Shown here piece by piece: positions 3,331 to 58,795 of a DNA stretch of 64,000 nucleotides. The DNA comes from an uncultured delta proteobacterium (GTDB lineage Bacteria > Desulfobacterota > WTBG01). The notes under the pieces were generated by a model, which had not been told where the DNA came from, made no database searches, and saw only the letters and a list, made by a program, of their open reading frames with translations. The position numbers were made by a program, and so were the translations under genes. How positions within the stretch are numbered: the first letter of the stretch is position 1; each line of letters starts with the position of its first letter. The DNA is taken from assembly GCA_963793865.1 (NCBI GenBank), contig CAWCBP010000014.1, positions 128,001-192,000 on the forward strand, read 5' to 3'.

Positions 3331-3483
3331 ACGGCAGTAAGGAACATGGTAAGGGCTGGAGTGCCTGAGAAGGTAGCAATGAAAATATCCGGGCATAAAA
3401 CAAGGTCTGTCTTTGACCGCTATAACATAGTCAATGAAACAGACCTTAAAAAGGCTGCGTATGTGCCTCACCAAGTACCATGA
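3331..3483 (+). pseudogene. tyrosine integrase C-terminal fragment
   Basis: manual translation [43 protein letters not shown] (box II GH and catalytic Y); not in the ORF track. Confidence 0.85.
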
Positions 3484-3572
3484 TGAAAATCACGGGCACA
3501 CTTTGGGCACACCAAGCATATTCAGGAGGAAAAGAGCGAATGAGTCAGCTTTCTAACTCATTGAAAAACAAG

Positions 3573-3657
3573 TGCCTAGGGCGGGAATCGAACCCGCACA
3601 GGGCTAAGCCCCGAGGGATTTTAAGTCCCTTGCGTCTGCCAGTTCCGCCACCCAGGC
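3573..3657 (-). tRNA. tRNA-Leu (anticodon UAA)
   Basis: GCCTGGG acceptor stem, AGGGA-CTTAAAA-TCCCT anticodon arm, long variable arm, GGTTCGATTCC T-loop; CCA not encoded. Confidence 0.95.
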
Positions 3658-3845
3658 ACTGTTATAAATCGAGTAGTTATAAGGATAGAAATAAAATGAT
3701 GGTGCAGGCACTTTATAATATTTTTGAGCAACTCTGTCAATTTATTACTGAGCGGTGTCGCCGTGCCTTCACTGTTCTTGGTGTCCTCAGATTTCATTAA
3801 AGCTACAATCTCACTATTGTAATATTCCATCTCAGTCATTGCGTA

Positions 3846-4751
3846 TTACTTTTTGATAAACGTGCCCTTATCATATTCTTCGAATGCAATCCGCAGTTCT
3901 TCCTGGGTATTCATAACTATCGGTCCGTACCATGCGACTGGTTCTTTGATCGGCTTTCCGGTTATGAGCAAAAACCGCACCGGTTCATCCTCGGTTGTGA
4001 TCATAACCTCATCACCCTTATCAAACAGTACGATCGTGCCATTGTCCGCAAAAGGCTCCCGTTTAATATCAAAATAGTTTTCTCCTTCGACCTCATAGGT
4101 AAACGGTTTTTTCTCCTGACAGAAATATCCCGTACCCTCAAAGACATAGGCAAAAACCGTGTGCCCCCGTTTGGTCGGATGAACAAACACCGCTCGACGC
4201 GGGACGGTAATATCAAGATATTCCGGATCAATGACTATGTCACGCACCGGTCCCTGTGTATTACCCACCGTACCACAGATGATTTTGATTTTTACACCAT
4301 TCTCCATTGTCAGCTCGGGAATCTGCTCCCTCTTAACATCGCGATAGCGCGGATCCATCATTTTATGAGCAGCAGGGAGATTTGCCCAGAGCTGGAAGCC
4401 ATACATCGAACCGTGTACATCTCCCTTGGGCATTTCCTGGTGGATAATCCCGCTGCCCGCGGTCATCCACTGCACATCGCCGGATGTGATAATCCCCTCA
4501 TTTCCCATGCTGTCACCATGCACTACATCACCGCGCAACACATAGGTGATCGTTTCTATGCCACGATGCGGATGCCAGGGAAATCCCTTCAAATAATGCC
4601 CGGGGGTGTCGGAACGGAAATCATCCAGCATCAGAAAAGGGTCAAACTGGGGAACTTGGTTATAGCCGAAAGCCCGTTTTAGATGGACGCCAGCCCCCTC
4701 GATGGTCGGCTTGCTCTTCCACACCTTTTTGATCTTGCGGATTGAGTTCAT
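3846..4751 (-). CDS. pirin family protein
   Basis: DPFLMLDDF...HPHRGIETITY...MTAGSGIIHQE; AGGAG RBS before ATG 4751. Confidence 0.92.
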   Translation of the reverse strand: MNSIRKIKKVWKSKPTIEGAGVHLKRAFGYNQVPQFDPFLMLDDFRSDTPGHYLKGFPWHPHRGIETITYVLRGDVVHGDSMGNEGIITSGDVQWMTAGSGIIHQEMPKGDVHGSMYGFQLWANLPAAHKMMDPRYRDVKREQIPELTMENGVKIKIICGTVGNTQGPVRDIVIDPEYLDITVPRRAVFVHPTKRGHTVFAYVFEGTGYFCQEKKPFTYEVEGENYFDIKREPFADNGTIVLFDKGDEVMITTEDEPVRFLLITGKPIKEPVAWYGPIVMNTQEELRIAFEEYDKGTFIKK

Positions 4752-4783: not shown

Positions 4784-5452
4784 CTATTCTGCGCAGGATT
4801 CACTTTTTGTATGCTGAGGCATTTTGTGGACCATAGTCTTTACATATTCAATGCCGAAACCGTACGCACCGCTGTGCTCCCAGATGAGATCGCAAACCGC
4901 ATCGTAGGTTTTTTTGTTGGCCCAATCACGCTGCCATTCAAGCATCACCTGCTGCCAGGTCATGGGAACGGCTCCAGCCTGAATCATCCGCTGGCAGGCC
5001 CGTTCGTGAACCTCAGGGGAAGTTCCTCCGGAAGCATCGGAAACGAAATATACCTCATACCCATCTTCTAATGCACTTAACACGGGGAAACAGAGGCAGA
5101 CTTCCGTCCACAGGGCACACATGACAAGACGCTTGCGGCCAATGCGCTTGACTTCGGCAAGGAATTTTTTATCCTCCCATGAGTTCATGCTGGAGCGTTC
5201 AATAGGCTTCTGTCCATTGAAGATGTCTAAAATTTGAGGCCACATATAGCCACTGAAGCTCTCGGTTTCTACAGTAGTGAGGATGGTTGGCACATTAAAG
5301 ATCTTGGCAGCCTTTGCCAGAGCTATGACGTTGTTTAAAAGCAGCTGCCGGTCAATTGAGGCCACACCAAAGGCCATCTGAGGCTGATGGTCGATAAAGA
5401 TCATTGTGCAGTCTTCAGGATACAGCAGGCTTTTAATTTTTCTTTTGACCAT
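4784..5452 (-). CDS. ycaC: isochorismatase-family hydrolase (YcaC-like)
   Basis: IFIDHQPQM...SMNSWED...ALWTEVC...DASGG. Confidence 0.88.
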   Translation of the reverse strand: MVKRKIKSLLYPEDCTMIFIDHQPQMAFGVASIDRQLLLNNVIALAKAAKIFNVPTILTTVETESFSGYMWPQILDIFNGQKPIERSSMNSWEDKKFLAEVKRIGRKRLVMCALWTEVCLCFPVLSALEDGYEVYFVSDASGGTSPEVHERACQRMIQAGAVPMTWQQVMLEWQRDWANKKTYDAVCDLIWEHSGAYGFGIEYVKTMVHKMPQHTKSESCAE

Positions 5453-18648: not shown

Positions 18649-20262
18649 ATGAGACAATCGAGCGCGGCGGAAGTGGAAGAACAGGAAACGGGCCGCGCGC
18701 TGAACAAGAAGAGGCTTGAAACCGCTGAGAGCATGGCGGCCCGCCAGCGGGACATCTCGGTGTCGGAATTTTTCGCCAAGAACCGCCACCTGCTGGGTTT
18801 TGATAATCCGCGCAAAGCGCTTCTCACGGCCATTAAAGAGGCGGTGGATAATTCACTGGATGCCTGCGAGGAAGCGGGCATATTGCCCGATATCCTTGTC
18901 AGCATCGAAGACCTCGGAAATGACCGTTTCCGCATCGCGGTGGAGGACAACGGCCCGGGTATTGTCAAGCGCCAGATTCCCAACATTTTCGGGAAGCTGC
19001 TCTATGGTTCGAAATTCCACTGCCTGAAGATGAGCCGGGGGCAGCAGGGGATCGGGATCAGCGCGGCCGGCATGTACGGGATGCTTACCACCGGCAAGCC
19101 GGTTGAAATCATCAGCCGCACCGATCCGTCAAAGCCCGCGCACCATTTTCTTCTGCAGATTGACACCAAGAAGAACAAGCCTGAAATCATCAGCGATAAA
19201 GAGGTGGAGTGGGAGCTTACGCACGGCACGCGCGTGGCCATCGAGCTGGAAGGCAAGCACACGCGGGGCAGGCAGTCGGTAGACGAGTATGTGCGCCAGA
19301 CCGTCATCGCCAATCCCCACCTCCGGGTTCGGTACCAGGAACCCTCGGGCGAGCTGATTACTTATGAGCGGTCCAGCGATCAGCGTCCCGGACACACCAG
19401 CGAGATTAAACCCCATCCCCATGGCGTTGAGATGGGCGTGCTCCAGACCATGCTTAAGGATACCAGGGCGCGCAACCTGGGAGGTTTTTTGCAGATGGAA
19501 TTTTCCAGGGTTTCGCAGCGGGTGGCGGAGGAAATTTGCGCCAATGCCGCTATTGCACCCTCGCTTTCACCCTCGCGCATGGGGCATCAGGAAGTGGAGA
19601 AACTGATGCAGGGGATTGCCAAAACCAAAATCATGAATCCGCCCACCAACTGTGTAGCCCCCATCGGCGAAGAGCAGTTGCAAAAGGGCCTGGAGTCGAC
19701 CATCCCGGCTGCTTTTTACACCTGTACCACCAGACCTCCGGCGGTGTACCGGGGAAATCCCTTCATCATTGAGGCGGCCCTTGCCTACGGCGGTGACGGC
19801 CAGGAAGCCGACGAGCCGGCCCGGGTGCTCAGGTTTGCCAACCGGGTGCCGTTGCTGTACCAGCAGGGCGGGTGCTGCGCCTACCAGTCGGTGCTGCAGA
19901 CAAACTGGCGACAGTATGGCTTGAACCAGCCTCGCGGTGCGCTTCCCGTGGGACCCCTCACTATTATCGTGCACATGGCCTCGGTCTGGGTCCCTTTCAC
20001 CAGCGAATCCAAGGAAGCCATTGCCGGATACCCGGAGATTGAGGAGCAGATTGTGCTCGCCCTGCAGGAATGCGGCCGCAGGTTAAAGCTGTTCCTTTCC
20101 AAGCGCAGGCGGGAAGCTGAAGCGCAGCGCAAGCTTGACTATCTTGAGATGTATCTTCCCCATATCGGAATCGGCCTGCGCGAACTGCTCAATTTGCCGG
20201 AGAAGGAAGAGAAGCAGCTGACGGATACGCTCAAGGAGCTGCTGGAGCGGCACCGGGGCTGA
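18649..20262 (+). CDS. top6B: DNA topoisomerase VI subunit B
   Basis: [62 protein letters not shown]. Confidence 0.95.
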
Positions 20263-20314
20263 ACTGCCCGGGCAATATACTTATTCAGAGGAAAGCAATC
20301 AGGCAATTCCGGGG

Positions 20315-21532
20315 ATGTACATGAATAAAAAGAGAGTAAGTCAGGGCAAGGAAAAACAAAAACCCGTGGCAGCCGCTAAAGCCATTAAGAGATCATCACC
20401 GCTTGACCTTTCACGTTCACCCGCCATGAAGGGGCTCATAGCGCAGGCACAGGATATACACAAGGATATCAAAAGCGGCCGCCGCCCGTCGCTGCGGGTG
20501 CCCATCCGCAGCCTGTCCAACGTTTCCTTTTCCAAGGATAAGGGCTTCTTCGCCATCGGCAAGAGGGTGAGCAAGCGGACCCTCTCCTACCAGACCATCA
20601 AGCCCTTTGCCCAGACCGTGCGGATGATGGCCTTTGCCAAGCACCTGATCGACACCAGCGACTTTGCTTCCAAACGTGAAGTCTACTACACCTCCAAGGG
20701 ATCAGCCAAGCGTGGCTCGGAAGCGGGTACGGCAGGATGGGGGCCGGCATCGTTTAAAGAGCAGCCGGAATCTGACACCATCATGGATGACATGGAGGCG
20801 ATGATTGGAGTAAACCGGGAGCAGCTCGGCTTTATTCCCGCCGAGCAGAACGGTTCGGTTGCAGGCGAGCTGATTGTTATCGATATCGACCCCGCCACGG
20901 GTAAAAAGATCGAAATTGACTGCACCGCCTTCGGCAGAGGGAGCTATTCCATTCCTTCGCGTGTGGAAGGCCTGGAGTTTCGCACCAAAGCCAAATTTAT
21001 ACTTGCGGTTGAGACCGCGGCGCTTTTCGAGCGCTTAAACGGTCACGCCTACTGGCGGGACGCAAAATGTATCATCGTGGCCATGGGCGGTGTTCCCACC
21101 CGGGCAAACCGGCGGTTTGTCCGGCTGCTGTCCGATTCCTGCAGGCTGCCGGTCTATGTTTTCACCGATGGTGACCCCTATGGTTACGGCAATATTTACC
21201 GCACCATGAAGGTGGGCTCCGGCAATGCGGCTCACATCAATGAGTTCTTCTGCGTGCCCCGGGCAAAGCTGATCGGTGTCACGCCCCAGGACATCGTGGA
21301 TTACAACCTGCCTACCCATCCCCTGGAAGACAAGGATAAGAAGCGCGCCCAGGATGCGATCAAAAATGATCCCTTCTTCAAGAACAACAAACAGTGGGTG
21401 CAGGCATTGCAGGAAATGGTCAAGATGGGCGTGCGCGTCGAGCAGCAGGCATTTGCCGCGCGCGGGCTCAATTACGTCATGGAGACCTACCTTCCCGAGA
21501 AGCTGGGCAATCCCTCCAAGATGCTTCCATAG
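20315..21532 (+). CDS. top6A: DNA topoisomerase VI subunit A (Spo11 family)
   Basis: SKREVYY catalytic Tyr region, AVET, FTDGDPYG TOPRIM, EQQA. Confidence 0.93.
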   Translation: MYMNKKRVSQGKEKQKPVAAAKAIKRSSPLDLSRSPAMKGLIAQAQDIHKDIKSGRRPSLRVPIRSLSNVSFSKDKGFFAIGKRVSKRTLSYQTIKPFAQTVRMMAFAKHLIDTSDFASKREVYYTSKGSAKRGSEAGTAGWGPASFKEQPESDTIMDDMEAMIGVNREQLGFIPAEQNGSVAGELIVIDIDPATGKKIEIDCTAFGRGSYSIPSRVEGLEFRTKAKFILAVETAALFERLNGHAYWRDAKCIIVAMGGVPTRANRRFVRLLSDSCRLPVYVFTDGDPYGYGNIYRTMKVGSGNAAHINEFFCVPRAKLIGVTPQDIVDYNLPTHPLEDKDKKRAQDAIKNDPFFKNNKQWVQALQEMVKMGVRVEQQAFAARGLNYVMETYLPEKLGNPSKMLP

Positions 21533-21616
21533 GCCTTACTCGAATTCGAGACATGATATTAGAAAAAATTCTGCAGCACTGCAACCCTGGTAGGGACTTA
21601 GGCTAACATTTTTATC

Positions 21617-21644
21617 TTGACATCAACTCAGTTTTTGGTAAATT
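21617..21644 (+). promoter_or_regulatory. sigma-70 promoter driving the tandem-RNA leader
   Basis: TTGACA (21617-22), 16-bp spacer, TG-g-TAAATT extended -10. Confidence 0.6.
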
Positions 21645-21704
21645 AAATCTACACTTCAAAGATGAGTTTACTTTGAAGTGCCTATAATTGAATATAATGC
21701 TAAT

Positions 21705-21790
21705 GGGTCTAGAAACTTTCGTTTCTAGAGGTTAAAGCTGTCGATAGTCGGGCCGCTATCTGAAAATTCAGAGGGCGTCCCTTTTCTTTT
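21705..21790 (+). ncRNA. putative riboswitch copy 1 (nhaA-I/DUF1646-like, Li+/Na+) with intrinsic terminator
   Basis: GGG-TCTAGAAAC/GTTTCTAGA-GGTTAAA...GATAGT-CGGGCC-GCTATC, then terminator hairpin and TTTTCTTTT. Confidence 0.7.
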
Positions 21791-21877
21791 GTCCGGAGAG
21801 CGAGAATAAAGGAGGAAATTACGAGTTAATCGCAAATTGTAATAATACATTTTATTAATAATTGAATAGAGTTTCAC

Positions 21878-21964
21878 GGGTCTAGAAGCAATTGTTTCTA
21901 GAGGTTAAATGCTGTTGATAGCCGGGCCGCTATCTGAAAATTCAGAGGGCGTCCCTTTTCTTTT
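21878..21964 (+). ncRNA. putative riboswitch copy 2 with intrinsic terminator
   Basis: GGG-TCTAGAAGC/GTTTCTAGA-GGTTAAAT...GATAGC-CGGGCC-GCTATC, identical terminator. Confidence 0.7.
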
Positions 21965-22041
21965 GTCCGGACGGGCACAGTGCAGGAGGAAGTAACGGGT
22001 TAATCATAAATTGCGTTGATAAAATTGAAGAGAGTTTCAAC

Positions 22042-22130
22042 GGGTCCAGAAACGGTTGTTTCTGGAGGTTAAATTCTGTTGATAGCCGGGCCGCTATCTG
22101 AAAATTCAGAGGGCGTCCCTTTTCTTTTTT
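22042..22130 (+). ncRNA. putative riboswitch copy 3 with intrinsic terminator
   Basis: GGG-TCCAGAAAC/GTTTCTGGA (compensatory T-A to C-G change)-GGTTAAAT...GATAGC-CGGGCC-GCTATC, identical terminator. Confidence 0.7.
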
Positions 22131-22202
22131 CAGGAGTCAGATTCTGGGGACTTTATTAAGGTGTGTACCTCATGCATCAATTAATTATGAGGAGGAACAA
22201 GG

Positions 22203-22376
22203 ATGAAATCTTTTAAAGAAGTGATCTTAGGTCTTGTAATAGGTGGTGGTTTTATTTTGATCCTCGCTGGTATCGAAGCCTTCAATCTGGGGAACAAGTG
22301 GTATCCTGCATATTTCATAACTGGTGCTATCATTGCGGTGGGATTCCTTAAACTCTCAACAAAAGTTATCAAATAG
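22203..22376 (+). CDS. small two-helix membrane protein A (57 aa, unknown family)
   Basis: GAGGAGG RBS; MKSFKEVILGLVIGGGFILILAGIEAFNLGNKWYPAYFITGAIIAVGFLKLSTKVIK; 31/50 identical to the next gene; below the ORF-track cutoff. Confidence 0.85.
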   Translation: MKSFKEVILGLVIGGGFILILAGIEAFNLGNKWYPAYFITGAIIAVGFLKLSTKVIK

Positions 22377-22425
22377 TAACAAGTAGCGAACATCAAACAT
22401 TCATTATTTGAAAGGAGAAACAAAG

Positions 22426-22620
22426 ATGAAGATTTTAAAAGATTGGATGTTAGGTATTTGCATTGGTGGTGGCATTGTATTGATTTTATTGGGTCTGCAA
22501 GCTGTAACCAGGGGAAATAAGTGGTGGCCTGCATATTTTATAGCCGGTGCTATCATTGCCGCAGGATTCATTAAAGTCGCGATCAATGATTATTTAAAGG
22601 AGAAAATAGGAGCACGATAG
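22426..22620 (+). CDS. small two-helix membrane protein B (64 aa), paralog of A
   Basis: AAGGAG RBS; MKILKDWMLGICIGGGIVLILLGLQAVTRGNKWWPAYFIAGAIIAAGFIK... Confidence 0.85.
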   Translation: MKILKDWMLGICIGGGIVLILLGLQAVTRGNKWWPAYFIAGAIIAAGFIKVAINDYLKEKIGAR

Positions 22621-22728
22621 ATTTTATCGTTGTTTGCCTATTTGCGGTTCTGTGTGGTATAATATCTCTTCAGCTCTTTACTGAAAGGGCTGTGGGGAGG
22701 CTTTGCCGTCTTGTCAGGAAGGTGACTT

Positions 22729-23487
22729 ATGTGTGCGAGGAAACGGGGGTGCGTGCAGCACTACAATCGTCAGCCGGGAAGAATGATTTTATATTTAATG
22801 ATGGCAGTCATTCTCGTGGTTATTTTTCAGAGCCCGGCAGGCGCCGGGGAAGGGGAGGTATATGACCCCGCGGTGATCGAGGCCTTCTACAGCAAAATCA
22901 TTCGCAATCCTATAGAGATTGATGGCGATCCATACAGGGTTCTGCAGGATGAAGACCTGATTGAGTACCCGGAAGAAGCAGTCTGCGCCATTCAATATGA
23001 AGATGACCGCATTCACTATGAAATTGCTACCTTCGATGACGAGGCCGCCGCTCAAGACAGCGGCTATATAGTGACGCACAAGGGGCATTGCGGTACCTGT
23101 TCCACCCTGCAGGATCTTGCCACCTATCTCTACCACCGGGATCTGACCACGCCGGTGAGGAGGTGCTCCGCGCTGGTGTGGTTCCCCGCCTGGAGCATGC
23201 ATTGCCTGGAGGAGCTGGGGTTCAGTTCGGAATGTGCGGAAACCTGGTATTACAACGCGAAGAATACGGCGCGCGAGTGCCTGTGGCCCTGCCTGGAATC
23301 CTGGATGCATAAAGAGCCCTTTAACAAGCCTGATGGCAGCCTGAACGACTGCCTTGCCTGCGATGAAGAGTGTTCAGGCCCGATTTTCAAGTATGTTGCC
23401 GGCCGCACGCGGCGGAACTCGGGCATCCGCTCTGAAATCGACAGGCCGGAGGACGAGGTGTATCCCATTGTGCATGATTATTATTGA
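22729..23487 (+). CDS. secreted cysteine-rich hypothetical protein
   Basis: signal-like hydrophobic stretch; THKGHCGTCS, LNDCLACDEECSGP, AGRTRRNSG; start may be 22783. Confidence 0.75.
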   Translation: MCARKRGCVQHYNRQPGRMILYLMMAVILVVIFQSPAGAGEGEVYDPAVIEAFYSKIIRNPIEIDGDPYRVLQDEDLIEYPEEAVCAIQYEDDRIHYEIATFDDEAAAQDSGYIVTHKGHCGTCSTLQDLATYLYHRDLTTPVRRCSALVWFPAWSMHCLEELGFSSECAETWYYNAKNTARECLWPCLESWMHKEPFNKPDGSLNDCLACDEECSGPIFKYVAGRTRRNSGIRSEIDRPEDEVYPIVHDYY

Positions 23488-47112: not shown

Positions 47113-47754
47113 ATGAGACTCAGCCATTACATGTATATATTATTGGGTTTTGCAGCGGGCTGCCTGATCGTAGCCTCCTCCCTGGCAGTGAAGGATGAAC
47201 ACACGTATCCCACTGGTGCGGGCACAGAGCAGGCAATTCCGCCTCCGGAGAACTGGCTTGACATCACTCCCGTTCGCGGCGAGCCACAATTAAAATTTTA
47301 TCTTGATCAATTTATTTATAGATGTGATGTCTGCCATATTGCTGAGAAGGCCTCGGCATGTGGGTGCGACAAGAATCTCAAAACACCAAACACCTTTCAT
47401 TTGCCGTTCGGTGCACATCGGGATATGGTTTTTAATCATGGATTAAATCTGCGTTGCTTCAACTGCCATAATTGTGCAAATCTGGACACTTATGTAGATC
47501 ATGACGGCACTGAAATCCCCGGCGATCAACCCGTCCTGCTCTGCAGAAAATGTCACGGCACAACCTACCATGACTGGGAAGCCGGCGCCCACGGCCGGAG
47601 CAACGGTGCGTGGGACGCACGCCGCGGTATGCAGGCAAAGCTTACCTGCAACCAGTGTCATGATCCGCATGCACCGCACTTTCCCCGGCTGATTCCCCGG
47701 CCATTCTCCGTCCACCGTCAGAATTCCGCATTTTACGCGAGGCAGCCATCATGA
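47113..47754 (+). CDS. multiheme c-type cytochrome (4 CxxCH)
   Basis: CDVCH, CFNCH, CRKCH, CNQCH; N-terminal signal/anchor. Confidence 0.85.
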   Translation: MRLSHYMYILLGFAAGCLIVASSLAVKDEHTYPTGAGTEQAIPPPENWLDITPVRGEPQLKFYLDQFIYRCDVCHIAEKASACGCDKNLKTPNTFHLPFGAHRDMVFNHGLNLRCFNCHNCANLDTYVDHDGTEIPGDQPVLLCRKCHGTTYHDWEAGAHGRSNGAWDARRGMQAKLTCNQCHDPHAPHFPRLIPRPFSVHRQNSAFYARQPS

Positions 47755-48722
47755 GTAACCGGAACAACCATGAGCCCGGACAATCCGGCCGCCGGGCTCT
47801 TCATGATGTACCCTATGCGCCCATAACGCGGCGGAGCTTTTTAAAGTTTGGTGCTGTGGCGGCTGGCACCTGTGCAGGGCTGAGCCTTGCACTGTCGCCA
47901 TTCAAAAACCTCAAGGAACATGTCAGCCTCGATGAATTTCTCCAGCAGCACTATCAGCGTTTGACCCCGGAGATGATGAACACGATTATGAAGCGCATAG
48001 AAAGGGAGATAGAGCGTGATTACGGGGTTAAGGCGCTGATGGAAGATTCTAAACCCCTGCCGGGGGTTGAATATGCCTTTGCATTGAATATCGGAAAGTG
48101 CATAGGTTGTCGCCGGTGCGTCTACGGCTGTATGAAGGAAAACAACACCTCCCGCAACCCCCAGATTCAATATATACGCGTTCTTGAGATGGACAAAGGC
48201 ACACAGAATGTTGAAGAGTCAGAGCACTATTATGAACACGACGCGGTTCCCCAAAAAGATAAATATTACATGCCGGTTCAGTGCCATCAGTGTAAAAATG
48301 CCCCCTGCGTAAAAGCCTGTCCGGTCAAGGCAACCTGGCAGGAGCCGGATGGGATAATCGTTGTAGATTACAATTGGTGCATCGGCTGCCGCTATTGCAT
48401 GGCAGCATGCCCGTACTGGGCGCGCCGGTTTAATTTTGCCAAACCGGTCATCCCCACAGAAGAGATTACAACAGATATGGCATACCTTGGAAACCGTATC
48501 CGGCCGCGCGGGGTTGTGGAAAAATGCACCTTCTGCCTGCGGCGGGTTCGCAAAGGAATGCTTCCTGCGTGCGTTGAGGTCTGCCCTACGGGTTCACGCG
48601 TGTTTGGTAATCTGCGTGATCCGGAGAGCCCGATTAACTATATTCTCAAACACAAACTGGTCTACATTTTTAAAGAGGAGGCGGGAACAATCCCCCGTTT
48701 CTATTATTGCTTTGATGTATGA
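47751..48722 (+). CDS. Tat-exported 4Fe-4S protein (NrfC/DsrO/DmsB family)
   Basis: TRRSFLK; CIGCRRC, CHQCKNAPC, CIGCRYC, EKCTFC. Confidence 0.9.
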   Translation: MSNRNNHEPGQSGRRALHDVPYAPITRRSFLKFGAVAAGTCAGLSLALSPFKNLKEHVSLDEFLQQHYQRLTPEMMNTIMKRIEREIERDYGVKALMEDSKPLPGVEYAFALNIGKCIGCRRCVYGCMKENNTSRNPQIQYIRVLEMDKGTQNVEESEHYYEHDAVPQKDKYYMPVQCHQCKNAPCVKACPVKATWQEPDGIIVVDYNWCIGCRYCMAACPYWARRFNFAKPVIPTEEITTDMAYLGNRIRPRGVVEKCTFCLRRVRKGMLPACVEVCPTGSRVFGNLRDPESPINYILKHKLVYIFKEEAGTIPRFYYCFDV

Positions 48723-48729
48723 GGATTTT

Positions 48730-49962
48730 ATGACCCAACATGCGGCGCGGGATTATGTAATCTTTCTCTGGCGTCTCTATCGCTACAGCTTTCTGGCAGC
48801 ATGAAGTACTATGCCTGGATGACTGTGCTCACCATTCTTTCCCTGGCCGGCCTTTATGCGTTTGCTGAACAGACCGTTAACGGCCTTGCCATTACCGGCA
48901 TGACAGACCAGGTTTCCTGGGGAGTGTACATCGCAAACTTTACTTTTATTGTGGGTCTTGCGGCAGCCGCGGTGATGCTGGTCATTCCCGCCTATATCTA
49001 TAATAATAAGCATCTCCACGATGTGGTCATACTTGGTGAGCTGCTGGCGATTGCAGCAATTGTGATGTGCCTGCTGTTTGTCAATGTGGATCTGGGTCGG
49101 CCGGATCGTTTCTGGCACCTCACCCCGGTCATTGGGGTCTTCAACTTTCCCATTTCGATGCTTTCGTGGGATGTGATTGTGCTCATTGGCTATTGATACT
49201 GAATGTGCACATTTGCGGCTACCTTCTCTATATGCGCTATTTGAACAGAAAACCCTCCACCCTTTTTTACATGCCGTTTGTGTTTATTGCCATCGTATGG
49301 GCAATCAGCATTCACACGGTAACTGCATTTCTTTATGTGGGACTGGTCGGCAGGCCGTTCTGGAACGCTGCCATCGTTGCCCCCCGTTTCATCGGGTCCG
49401 CATTCACTGCAGGGCCCGGACTGATGATTGTTGCCTTCCAGGTCATCCGGCGTTATACCAATTATAAAATTGATGATGAGGCGCTCCGGATCCTTCGCCA
49501 GATTGTGACCGTTTCCCTGCTGGTGAACCTGTTTCTGCTCGGCTGTGAGGCATTCAAGGAGTTTTATGCCGAATCGGTTCATTCCAGTTCCGCACGGTAT
49601 CTTTTTTTGGACTTGACGGCTATACCCAGCTCAGATCGTGGATATGGTTTGCCATCGTCATAGAAACCATCGCCGGGGTTATCCTGGTTACTCCCTCTCT
49701 GGCCAAAAACATGATGTACACCAATGCAGCCTGCATGCTCGCTTTTGTGGGAATATGGATAGAAAAAGGAATGGGGATGATCGTGCCCGGTTTTCTGCCG
49801 ACTCCGCTGGGTGAAATTGTAGAATATTTTCCGACCATGCTTGAAACGCTCATGTGTATTGGCGTCTGGTCTTTTGGCCTGCTTATGTATTCATGGATGA
49901 TTCATTTGGCAGTACCCATCCTGTCCGGACAGTTCCAGCGGCATGGAAATCCATCAGGGTAG
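48730..49962 (+). pseudogene. NrfD/PsrC/DsrP-family membrane subunit with three single-base frameshifts (pseudogene or assembly error)
   Basis: GMTDQVSWGVYIANF, DLGRPDR, SIHTVTAFL, GIWIEKG split across frames near 48796, 49192 and 49608. Confidence 0.8.
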
Positions 49963-57933: not shown

Positions 57934-57973
57934 GGTGACAGTTCAACCCCTCACCCCATCCCTCTCCCCAAGA

Positions 57974-58665
57974 TTTGTCTGCGGATGATACGGCCGGCTG
58001 TGTATGATGGTAATGCCTTGGCGGATCAACCATACCGTCAACGGGGTGAAGGGATGTGGCTTATCAGACCCCCACGGCGAACCGTTGTCCACCAGCATTC
58101 GCTTGGGCAATCCATACCGATGAAAAATATCGACCAATTGCTGCCGTACGGTTAGCGTTTGCTCATTGCTGCAGGCGCGTATTCCCAGTGCATAGCGCGA
58201 ATGGTCATCAAGCACGGTCAGTGGATGACAGCGGCCCTGTTCAGCATCAAAATTGCCTTTAAAGTCCATTTGCCAAAGATCATTCGGTGCCACAGCTTCA
58301 AAACGCTGCCAAGCATTGTGCTTAAGTGATTCAGCGGCATCAATGCGACCACGGCGCTGTAAGATGGCGGTGATCGTACTGGCCGCCGGCAGTTTTTGCC
58401 AGCCCAGATGTTGCAAACGCGTGCGGATTTTACGTCCTCCCCAGGCTTTGTGTTCATCTCGAATTGCCAGGATTGCATCTTCCAGTTCATCACTGGTTCT
58501 GGCAGGGCTTGAATGGGGCCTGCGGCGATGATAGGCAAGACCCGGGGAACTGTATCGCAGAAAGCGCTTTATCGATTTATAGGCGGTTTTACGGCTGATA
58601 TTAAAACGTCGAAACAACTTGGCGATATTAGCTGAGTCGGACAATGGAAATCTTATAAATTCTAA
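57974..58665 (-). mobile_element. IS481-family transposase remnant, truncated at both ends
   Basis: RRFNISRKTAYK HTH, WGGRKI, LWQMDFKG, VLDDHSRY, DNGSPW, PYHPQT; final catalytic E region missing. Confidence 0.85.
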
Positions 58666-58795
58666 CAAAGGGGCGAGGGGGAGTTCATGATGATTCCTTT
58701 CTAAGAGTGTAGAGGAAACCAACCGATTCCCTCTCCCCACTGGGGGAGAGGGTTAGGGTGAGGGGGTATCGTAAATCTATTGCTGGCTAACACTA

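Follow-up and report, generated by a model that had tools for sequence, protein, structure and literature searches.

Why would a bacterium place the genes of two membrane proteins of 57 and 64 amino acids (aa) behind three predicted riboswitches in series? This question is raised by a locus in a 64,000-nucleotide (nt) stretch of forward-strand DNA from an uncultured delta proteobacterium (GenBank assembly GCA_963793865.1, contig CAWCBP010000014.1, positions 128,001 to 192,000), which we refer to as the window. Its two adjacent open reading frames (ORFs), ORF-A and ORF-B, encode paralogous proteins with two predicted helices each. From the analysis described here, we consider it probable that the locus is a low-leak, near-digital cassette induced by Na+ (possibly Li+), and that proteins A and B serve as a salt-stress membrane modulator, probably as a parallel hetero-oligomer, rather than as an autonomous transporter.

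Results

Two adjacent paralogous genes under purifying selection

An initial annotation of the window, made from its letters, had proposed adjacent genes for proteins of 57 and 64 aa, each with a strong ribosome-binding site (RBS). Both genes were found:

22203..22376, + strand: ORF-A, ATG start, 57 aa, A-type protein with the tail LKLSTKVIK, predicted two-helix membrane hairpin
22426..22620, + strand: ORF-B, ATG start, 64 aa, B-type protein with the tail VAINDYxK, predicted two-helix membrane hairpin

The RBS of ORF-A is AGGAGG, 7 nt 5' of its ATG, and that of ORF-B is AAGGAG, 8 nt 5' of its ATG, in line with the annotation. The reported absence of ORF-A from the ORF track fits its length, as 57 aa lies below the default 60-aa ORF cut-off; ORF-B begins at TTG 22408 in the mechanical ORF list, which makes it 70 aa long. 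When the two proteins were aligned by BLASTP, we obtained 31 identities and 41 positives over 52 positions with no gaps (E 3e-22). The ungapped alignment and the 31 identities given at first therefore stand, and the length of 50 positions given with them is replaced by 52. The motifs LGxxIGGG and GNKW(Y/W)PAYF, which had been singled out as shared, are present in both proteins. A tblastn search of the window returned no further A/B paralogues.

We scanned 185,579 species-representative genomes with the motif GN(K)WWPAYFI. Five stretches matched, and two of these were confirmed as relatives: contig CAZWCD010000021.1 of an uncultured Thermodesulfobacteriota metagenome-assembled genome (MAG), referred to as L001 herein, and contig CAVVUR010000010.1 of an uncultured delta proteobacterium MAG, referred to as L002. 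Two relatives is a lower bound because the motif pattern could miss divergent members. Upon comparison of the window with these orthologues by the Nei-Gojobori method, the ratio of nonsynonymous to synonymous substitution rates (dN/dS) lay between 0.10 and 0.20 for A and between 0.27 and 0.35 for B, with dS ranging from 0.33 to 1.9. A dN/dS near 1 had been named beforehand as a finding that would speak against the pair; the computed range of 0.10-0.35 indicates that both genes are under purifying selection. Because two other genomes carry the orthologous pair with dN/dS this low, and because the hairpin models described below are confident, we conclude that the A/B pair represents real conserved genes and is more than chance.

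A leader of three tandem riboswitch units

To annotate the leader, both the region 21400-23000 and the whole 64 kb were scanned with the nhaA-I model RF03057, which has a gathering score of 37 bits. The elements 5' of ORF-A are as follows:

21617..21644, + strand: sigma-70-like promoter candidate, TTGACA-16-TAAATT with TG before the -10 element; 10/12 matches, a consensus match only
21705..21761, + strand: unit 1 aptamer, nhaA-I, RF03057 48.0 bits; U at the specificity position (AGUCGGGCC)
21750..21790, + strand: unit 1 intrinsic terminator, from the minimum free energy (MFE) fold and pairing across nine units; inner hairpin found by terminator scan
21878..21935, + strand: unit 2 aptamer, nhaA-I, RF03057 42.6 bits; C at the specificity position (AGCCGGGCC), Na+-II type
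21924..21964, + strand: unit 2 intrinsic terminator, from the MFE fold, nine-unit pairing and terminator scan
22042..22099, + strand: unit 3 aptamer, nhaA-I, RF03057 44.7 bits; C at the specificity position
22088..22130, + strand: unit 3 intrinsic terminator, the final gate before ORF-A, from the MFE fold, nine-unit pairing and terminator scan

All three units cover model positions 1-55 of 55, which comprise P1, the AGGUU linker and P2 with its CGGGCC loop, and exceed the gathering score, and the Rfam scan found no other nhaA-I match in the 64 kb. Each unit spans ~165-175 nt, with a mean column identity of 82% among the three, and the end of the unit 3 aptamer lies 104 nt from the ATG of ORF-A. 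In stem P1, a U-A pair in units 1 and 2 is replaced by C-G in unit 3, a compensatory change. The TTTATCTTGACA stretch at the promoter candidate is kept in L002.

The three loci (window, L001 and L002) together hold nine units, and in 9/9 the aptamer has its own terminator, in which the 5' arm consists of the P2 loop and the 3' strand of P2 and is followed by a U-tract (UUUUCUUUU in the window). For every window unit, the MFE structure consisted of P1 plus the terminator with P2 left unformed (z -2.6 to -3.6). Since this holds in each unit, the default state of the leader is expected to be OFF. Across the nine units, aptamer pairing was intact in 126/126 cells, compared to 32-59% in slid controls. 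Double changes were seen in 3 of the 14 aptamer pairs, giving a covariation score that 0/500 shuffles reached, which we regard as modest evidence because the nine units are related copies. Terminator pairing held in 92.2% of 116 cells, without covariation.

In the available part of the report by White et al. (2022, Sci Rep 12:19145, PMC9646797), nhaA-I RNAs are identified as Li+-I riboswitches, with nhaA accounting for 356 of 944 associations and 'hypothetical' genes for 171. The same part describes rare terminator-bearing variants, confined to Deltaproteobacteria and located upstream of genes of unknown function; the variant of Desulfobulbus propionicus responded to Na+ with a dissociation constant (KD) in the low-mM range, and the type was named Na+-II (PMC9646797). 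In that account Na+-II is diagnosed by position 54, immediately 5' of the CGGGCC loop, where it has a C, and the change C54U makes the switch respond more broadly, to Li+, Na+ and NH4+ (PMC9646797). At this position the units of the window read U, C and C, those of L002 C, C and C, and those of L001 U, U and U, which gives five C and four U among the nine. Taken together, the model matches, pairing and terminators point to a leader of three nhaA-I riboswitch units in tandem, probably of the Na+-II type, which carries a terminator. A connection to Na+ or Li+, which the initial annotation had implied through the experiment it proposed, is strongly supported by these three upstream units.

The spacers of the leader hold further elements. 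In the window, 21800-21860 and 21970-22030 contain a Shine-Dalgarno-like AGGAGG that is conserved in L002; in L001, spacers 4373-4399 and 4555-4578 contain ATG...TAA mini-ORFs of 8 and 7 codons. Ribosome loading, protection from Rho and a relic of duplication are possibilities for these elements.

Conserved order of the cassette and its genomic setting

The order of three nhaA-I units, A and B was the same in 3/3 loci. With RF03057, the L001 units scored 42.7, 49.8 and 48.9 bits (3/3 at or above the gathering score) and the L002 units 36.0, 41.8 and 43.5 bits (2/3), so that 8/9 units over all loci are at or above it. From the promoter to just past B, window positions 21611-22632 and L002 44-1056 are collinear and share 84% nucleotide identity. 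The flanks in the window are thrC, adenylylsulfate kinase and topoisomerase VI B/A genes upstream and, downstream, genes for a 252-aa Cys-rich protein and for GTP-dependent phosphoenolpyruvate carboxykinase (PEPCK). Between ORF-B and the gene for the 252-aa protein, positions 22634-22663 hold a promoter-like sequence, TTGCCT-18-TATAAT. The cassette (window 21600-22620, ~1 kb) behaves as a self-contained unit. Its GC content is 0.388, compared to 0.502 for the whole window. Because the cassette is AT-rich, has different flanks in 3/3 genomes, and in L002 lies near an integrase and a group II intron, we see hints that it moves between genomes.

Several neighbors are recorded here in their own right. 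The topoisomerase VI B and A (Spo11-like) genes are adjacent to each other at 18649-21532 (+), just 5' of the cassette; topoisomerase VI is an archaeal-type enzyme that is uncommon in bacteria. The 252-aa Cys-rich protein (22729-23487, +) carries a hydrophobic segment at its N-terminus and matched no family in Pfam or NCBIfam. In L001, a gene of the mannosyl-3-phosphoglycerate phosphatase family (3348-4190; TIGR01486, 212.6 bits, cut-off 164.75), which belongs to compatible-solute synthesis, ends just 5' of the promoter region, an osmotic-stress neighbor in 1/3 loci. Downstream in L002 are a tyrosine integrase gene (1743-2540) and a group II intron (4892-4968, -).

A small family without a named relative

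The initial annotation did not recognize the protein family, and neither did our searches. When the A, B and C ORFs (C is described below) were scanned against Pfam, NCBIfam, PHROGs and PADLOC, no match reached its cut-off. The best library matches below cut-off were CyanoTRADDas_TM (13.8 bits, cut-off 24.3), DUF6320 (13.8, cut-off 29.9) and SLATT_1 (15.6, cut-off 41). PHROGs gave nothing for A and only phrog_34357, of unknown function, for B (E 0.059), and PADLOC gave no match for either protein. An ESM Atlas search with B reached a top score of 0.87, below the lead threshold of 0.9, and the sole named family was a DUF6903 row at 0.86. When the model of B was compared with the PDB by Foldseek, 163 matches were obtained at E<=10, all generic hairpins, and none at E<=0.001. 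No description of the A/B family was found in the accessible parts of the literature on nhaA-I and Na+-II riboswitches and on sodium-linked small membrane proteins, and PMC12452182 mentions neither nhaA nor Li+ or Na+.

By word-indexed search, nine relatives were found for B and four for A, one of the four being the window's own protein. A 14-sequence HMMER profile run against 1.84 billion representatives, with no length restriction, yielded six clusters at E<=1e-3, all of 56-73 aa. A 16-sequence profile run against 5.8 billion clusters within a length window of 31-128 aa yielded 35 clusters at E<=0.01 among 4716 candidates, all of 41-98 aa; these are unnamed or 'hypothetical', except for two with evidently spurious source names. 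Fused or longer forms of the family were absent from both searches, at any length in the former and within 31-128 aa in the latter. In a 34-row alignment of the family, G16, G23, A26 and Y37 are invariant and M1, K5, G10, L19, G30, P35, G41 and I44 nearly so. The tails divide evenly, with 17 rows of A type (LKLSTKVIK) and 17 of B type (VAINDYxK).

Predicted hairpins with both ends in the cytoplasm

AlphaFold2 models built with the family alignment had a predicted local distance difference test (pLDDT) score of 89.4 for A, with helices at 2-28 and 34-56, and of 84.8 for B, with helices at 2-28 and 34-63. In both predicted hairpins, the turn is formed by the residues G-N-K-W, and small-xxx-small patterns occur on both helices. 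Among the 34 family members, the mean number of Lys plus Arg residues per protein was 1.68 at the N-terminus, 1.26 in the loop and 2.82 at the C-terminus, which corresponds to ~4.5 at the termini and 1.26 in the loop. This excess fits the claim, made at first from the Lys-rich termini, that both ends are cytoplasmic, and A and B are both predicted to be N-in/C-in. Because the charge bias is the same in the two proteins, any A/B heteromer would be parallel and not antiparallel. Such a hetero-oligomer is plausible on sequence grounds, since the pair is kept in 3/3 loci and the A- and B-type tails are equally represented in the family.

A third small ORF in the relatives

In L001 (5186-5344) and L002 (1038-1199), a third ORF, C, follows B through an ATGA stop/start overlap. 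The C proteins are 52-53 aa long, with a single hydrophobic helix and a tail rich in Lys, and L002 has a fourth ORF at 1255-1359, a 34-aa copy of C. The C ORFs resemble one another weakly, at E 1e-3 to 1e-5 when compared in a database of three sequences, and that of L001 has a weak match to a holin PHROG (E 0.019). The window retains what is probably a remnant:

22614..22700, + strand: probable C remnant, uncertain; ACG replaces ATG, apparent fusion of two copies

The change from ATG to ACG in the window also turns the TGA stop of B into Arg, producing the ...GAR ending common to P0001 and P0003. Window positions 22624-22656 match L002 1289-1321 at 85%, and the C frame of the window looks as if both L002 copies had been fused in it.

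Other features of the window

Two overlapping ORFs at 48801-49196 and 49067-49663 (+) correspond to the first third and the middle of NrfD, the polysulphide reductase membrane subunit. The pair looks like a frameshifted or split gene, and a 4Fe-4S protein gene adjoins it at 47751-48722. At 57943-58740 (-), beside recD/uvrD-like helicase genes, is an rve-type integrase with an HTH_32 domain, which is probably an insertion-sequence transposase.

Discussion

How the cassette may work

We propose that, without ligand, every unit of the leader folds to its terminator, so that transcription would have to pass three gates in series. Because the terminator uses the 3' half of P2 as its 5' arm, stabilization of P2 by bound ligand would allow read-through. 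By analogy with D. propionicus, the ligand would be cytoplasmic Na+ in the low-mM KD range, and we infer that Na+ opens all three gates of the window, with the C-type units setting the specificity; Li+ or NH4+ could act on the U-type unit. For three independent units, our own algebra predicts an output of roughly f cubed and a basal leak that is likewise cubed down, with the half-maximum moved to ~3.9 x KD and the 10-90% range narrowed from 81-fold to ~32-fold. The products of this gating would be paralogous N-in/C-in hairpins in which Gly/Ala-rich helices flank a conserved turn, G-N-K-W-W-P-A-Y, on the periplasmic side. A and B most likely join in parallel as a hetero-oligomer and serve as a salt-stress membrane factor, which could modulate the leak of cations, the membrane potential or a transporter whose gene lies elsewhere, in a manner like that of Pmp3/RCI2 or of KdpF/MgtS. 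The initial annotation had offered a channel, a transporter or a modulator of one; of these terms, 'modulator' is the better-fitting one.

Several observations weigh against this proposal of a Na+-induced modulator. A response to Li+ or to a broader set of cations is possible because U occupies the diagnostic position in 3/3 units of L001 and 1/3 of the window. The 34-row alignment contains no conserved charged or polar residue inside either helix, so that an ion site is not obvious and a modulator, too, would have no defined partner. No transporter gene adjoins the cassette in the three loci, and no Na+-related Pfam family was present in the scan of the window's other 46 ORFs. The resemblance to Pmp3/RCI2 would be a functional analogy only, as PF01679 gave no match to A or B in the Pfam scan even at E<=10. 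No terminator with a U-tract was found after ORF-B in the window, and read-through into the 252-aa gene at 22729 is possible for that reason. Metagenomic family members P0023 and P0025 combine an A-like N-terminal half with a B-type tail, which weakens the case for an obligate heteromer of two types; recombination could have produced them, or each may represent the pair in a single gene. Lastly, the family tree was built from 63 columns, and 16/31 of its inner branches are open and its backbone unresolved. In favor of two types, the A/B label on that tree requires 2 changes, compared to 11.7 in shuffles, of which 0/500 were that low. The tree also places window A with L002 A (99/99). A-type and B-type proteins therefore cluster across genomes, which indicates from the sequences that the duplication is older than the split of the genomes that carry it.

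Other functions for the pair

If A and B acted on their own as a hetero-oligomeric channel or exporter, their Gly-zipper helices would form a pore or carrier for Na+/Li+ or for a counter-ion such as K+. The small-xxx-small patterns on both helices, the invariant G16, G23, A26 and Y37, and the retention of the gene pair in 3/3 loci are consistent with this, and antiporters are the usual payload of the controlling riboswitch class (nhaA, 356/944, in the text of White et al. available to us; PMC9646797). Triple gating would also suit a product that is dangerous when leaky. However, the helices offer no conserved acidic or polar residue, the fold has no PDB match at E<=0.001, and no fused or longer form exists among the family matches, all of 41-98 aa. 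The Na+ gradient points inward, and a passive Na+ channel would let Na+ in, down that gradient. We consider an autonomous channel or exporter unlikely. The triple terminator can be read in another way, as the means of silencing a membrane-damaging product of the holin or type-I-toxin kind that, once induced by high Na+, would stop growth or lyse the cell. Three serial terminators would give a very low leak, the products are tiny and hydrophobic, and the cassette is AT-rich, non-syntenic and, in L002, has a tyrosine integrase gene beside it, along with a group II intron. The holin PHROG match in L001 also points this way, but at E 0.019 it is far from significant, and it falls on C rather than on A or B, for which neither PHROGs nor PADLOC gave a match at cut-off. 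We saw no antitoxin or antisense RNA, and purifying selection with pairing kept to dS ~1.9 fits a housekeeping stress role equally well. A toxin-like role is thus quite improbable.

Adjacent paralogous Gly-rich peptides with a small membrane ORF next to them, as in L001 and L002, also recall a two-peptide bacteriocin of class IIb type in which C would be the immunity protein. GxxxG-type motifs are typical of two-peptide bacteriocins. We nevertheless hold this to be very improbable: the hydrophobic helix starts at residue 2, leaving no amphipathic double-glycine leader, both ends are predicted to be cytoplasmic, the window ORFs scanned include no C39-peptidase ATP-binding cassette exporter, and control by a cation riboswitch would have no rationale. 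It is also conceivable that A and B are incidental and that the riboswitches serve the 252-aa Cys-rich gene or PEPCK, as no terminator was found between ORF-B and 22729. Yet these downstream genes are not kept beside the cassette in L001 or L002, a promoter-like site lies at 22634-22663, and the dN/dS of A and B is well under 1, which together leave scarcely any room for such a reading.

What the locus would mean

Bacterial Na+ sensing is poorly understood, and the locus pinpoints one payload of the Na+-II type. For the modulator that we favor, the A/B pair offers a candidate that can be expressed, a possible new membrane factor in salt stress. A bolder claim, which we rate as unlikely, is that A and B (with C in the relatives) constitute a new minimal device that directly alters Na+ handling, either a hetero-oligomeric Gly-zipper valve or a subunit that turns a resident transporter to Na+ extrusion, under the first tandem Na+-II leader, one that would act as a near-digital threshold or, given the U, C, C series of the window, as an AND gate of mixed specificity. 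If true, the Na+-II riboswitch regulon would thereby gain its first function. The locus also illustrates that genes of less than 60 aa, which default ORF cut-offs miss, can be the sole cargo of an elaborate regulatory RNA.

Comparison with known systems

Adjacent genes for small paralogous membrane proteins are shared with the SMR (EmrE-like) and Fluc (CrcB) families, some of which are under riboswitch control (guanidine, fluoride), and the initial annotation had drawn this analogy. In those families each subunit has four helices, and the paired proteins, whose charge biases are opposite, form antiparallel dimers. A and B have two helices and the same Lys and Arg bias, and no Pfam match, so that the analogy, with SMR (EmrE/SugE) as with Fluc/CrcB, fails on helix number, charge bias and HMM match. 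We also rejected the F/V-ATPase c subunit, a helical hairpin with a Gly-rich helix 1 and an ion-binding carboxylate in helix 2: there was no ATP-synt_C match and no conserved Asp or Glu in helix 2, and the PDB c-ring 4cbj_A was matched at E 5.8.

KdpF, MgtS, AcrZ and OadG are tiny one-helix hydrophobic proteins that are ion-induced, bind larger transporters and are encoded in or near the operon of their partner. A and B differ from them in having two helices, no adjacent partner and no sequence similarity. In the available text of White et al., oadG is an occasional payload of nhaA-I and Na+-I riboswitches (PMC9646797). The closest functional analogue, by best match, would be Pmp3/RCI2/YqaE (PF01679): proteins of ~55 aa with two transmembrane helices that are salt-induced and, in the part of the source at hand, are reported regulators of membrane potential and stress tolerance (PMC7835403). 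Their conserved motifs differ from those of A and B, which are moreover two paralogues under riboswitch control.

For the leader, the nearest relative is the Na+-II switch of D. propionicus, which shares with it the nhaA-I aptamer, a terminator overlapping P2, the deltaproteobacterial (Thermodesulfobacteriota) lineage and a payload of unknown function, as far as the accessible description goes; the P1 sequence of the published construct, where given, is nearly the same by eye. The diagnostic C is present in two window units (2 and 3) and in 3/3 units of L002, whereas one window unit and all L001 units have U, and D. propionicus has a single unit compared to three in series here. The payload gene of D. 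propionicus was not returned by the motif scan of genomes. Triple arrays have precedents, and a triple tandem cyclic di-GMP riboswitch is reportedly on record as well (PMC4759541). The part of White et al. at hand lists several tandem Li+-I arrangements in an environmental sample and one triple before nhaD (PMC9646797), and the tandem-riboswitch survey of Sherlock et al. (2022, RNA Biol, PMC9481103), in its available part, counts six doublets and one triplet for Li+-I and places Na+-II among the classes never seen in tandem. The present leader would be a natural triple switch in a class surveyed that year as never tandem (PMC9481103). Like the triple before nhaD and other triples, it has three aptamers each with a terminator, an arrangement from which a pseudo-cooperative, more digital response is expected in the available parts of both reports (PMC9646797, PMC9481103). 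The payload there is an antiporter, whereas here it is two micro-proteins, and the arrangement is kept in three genomes.

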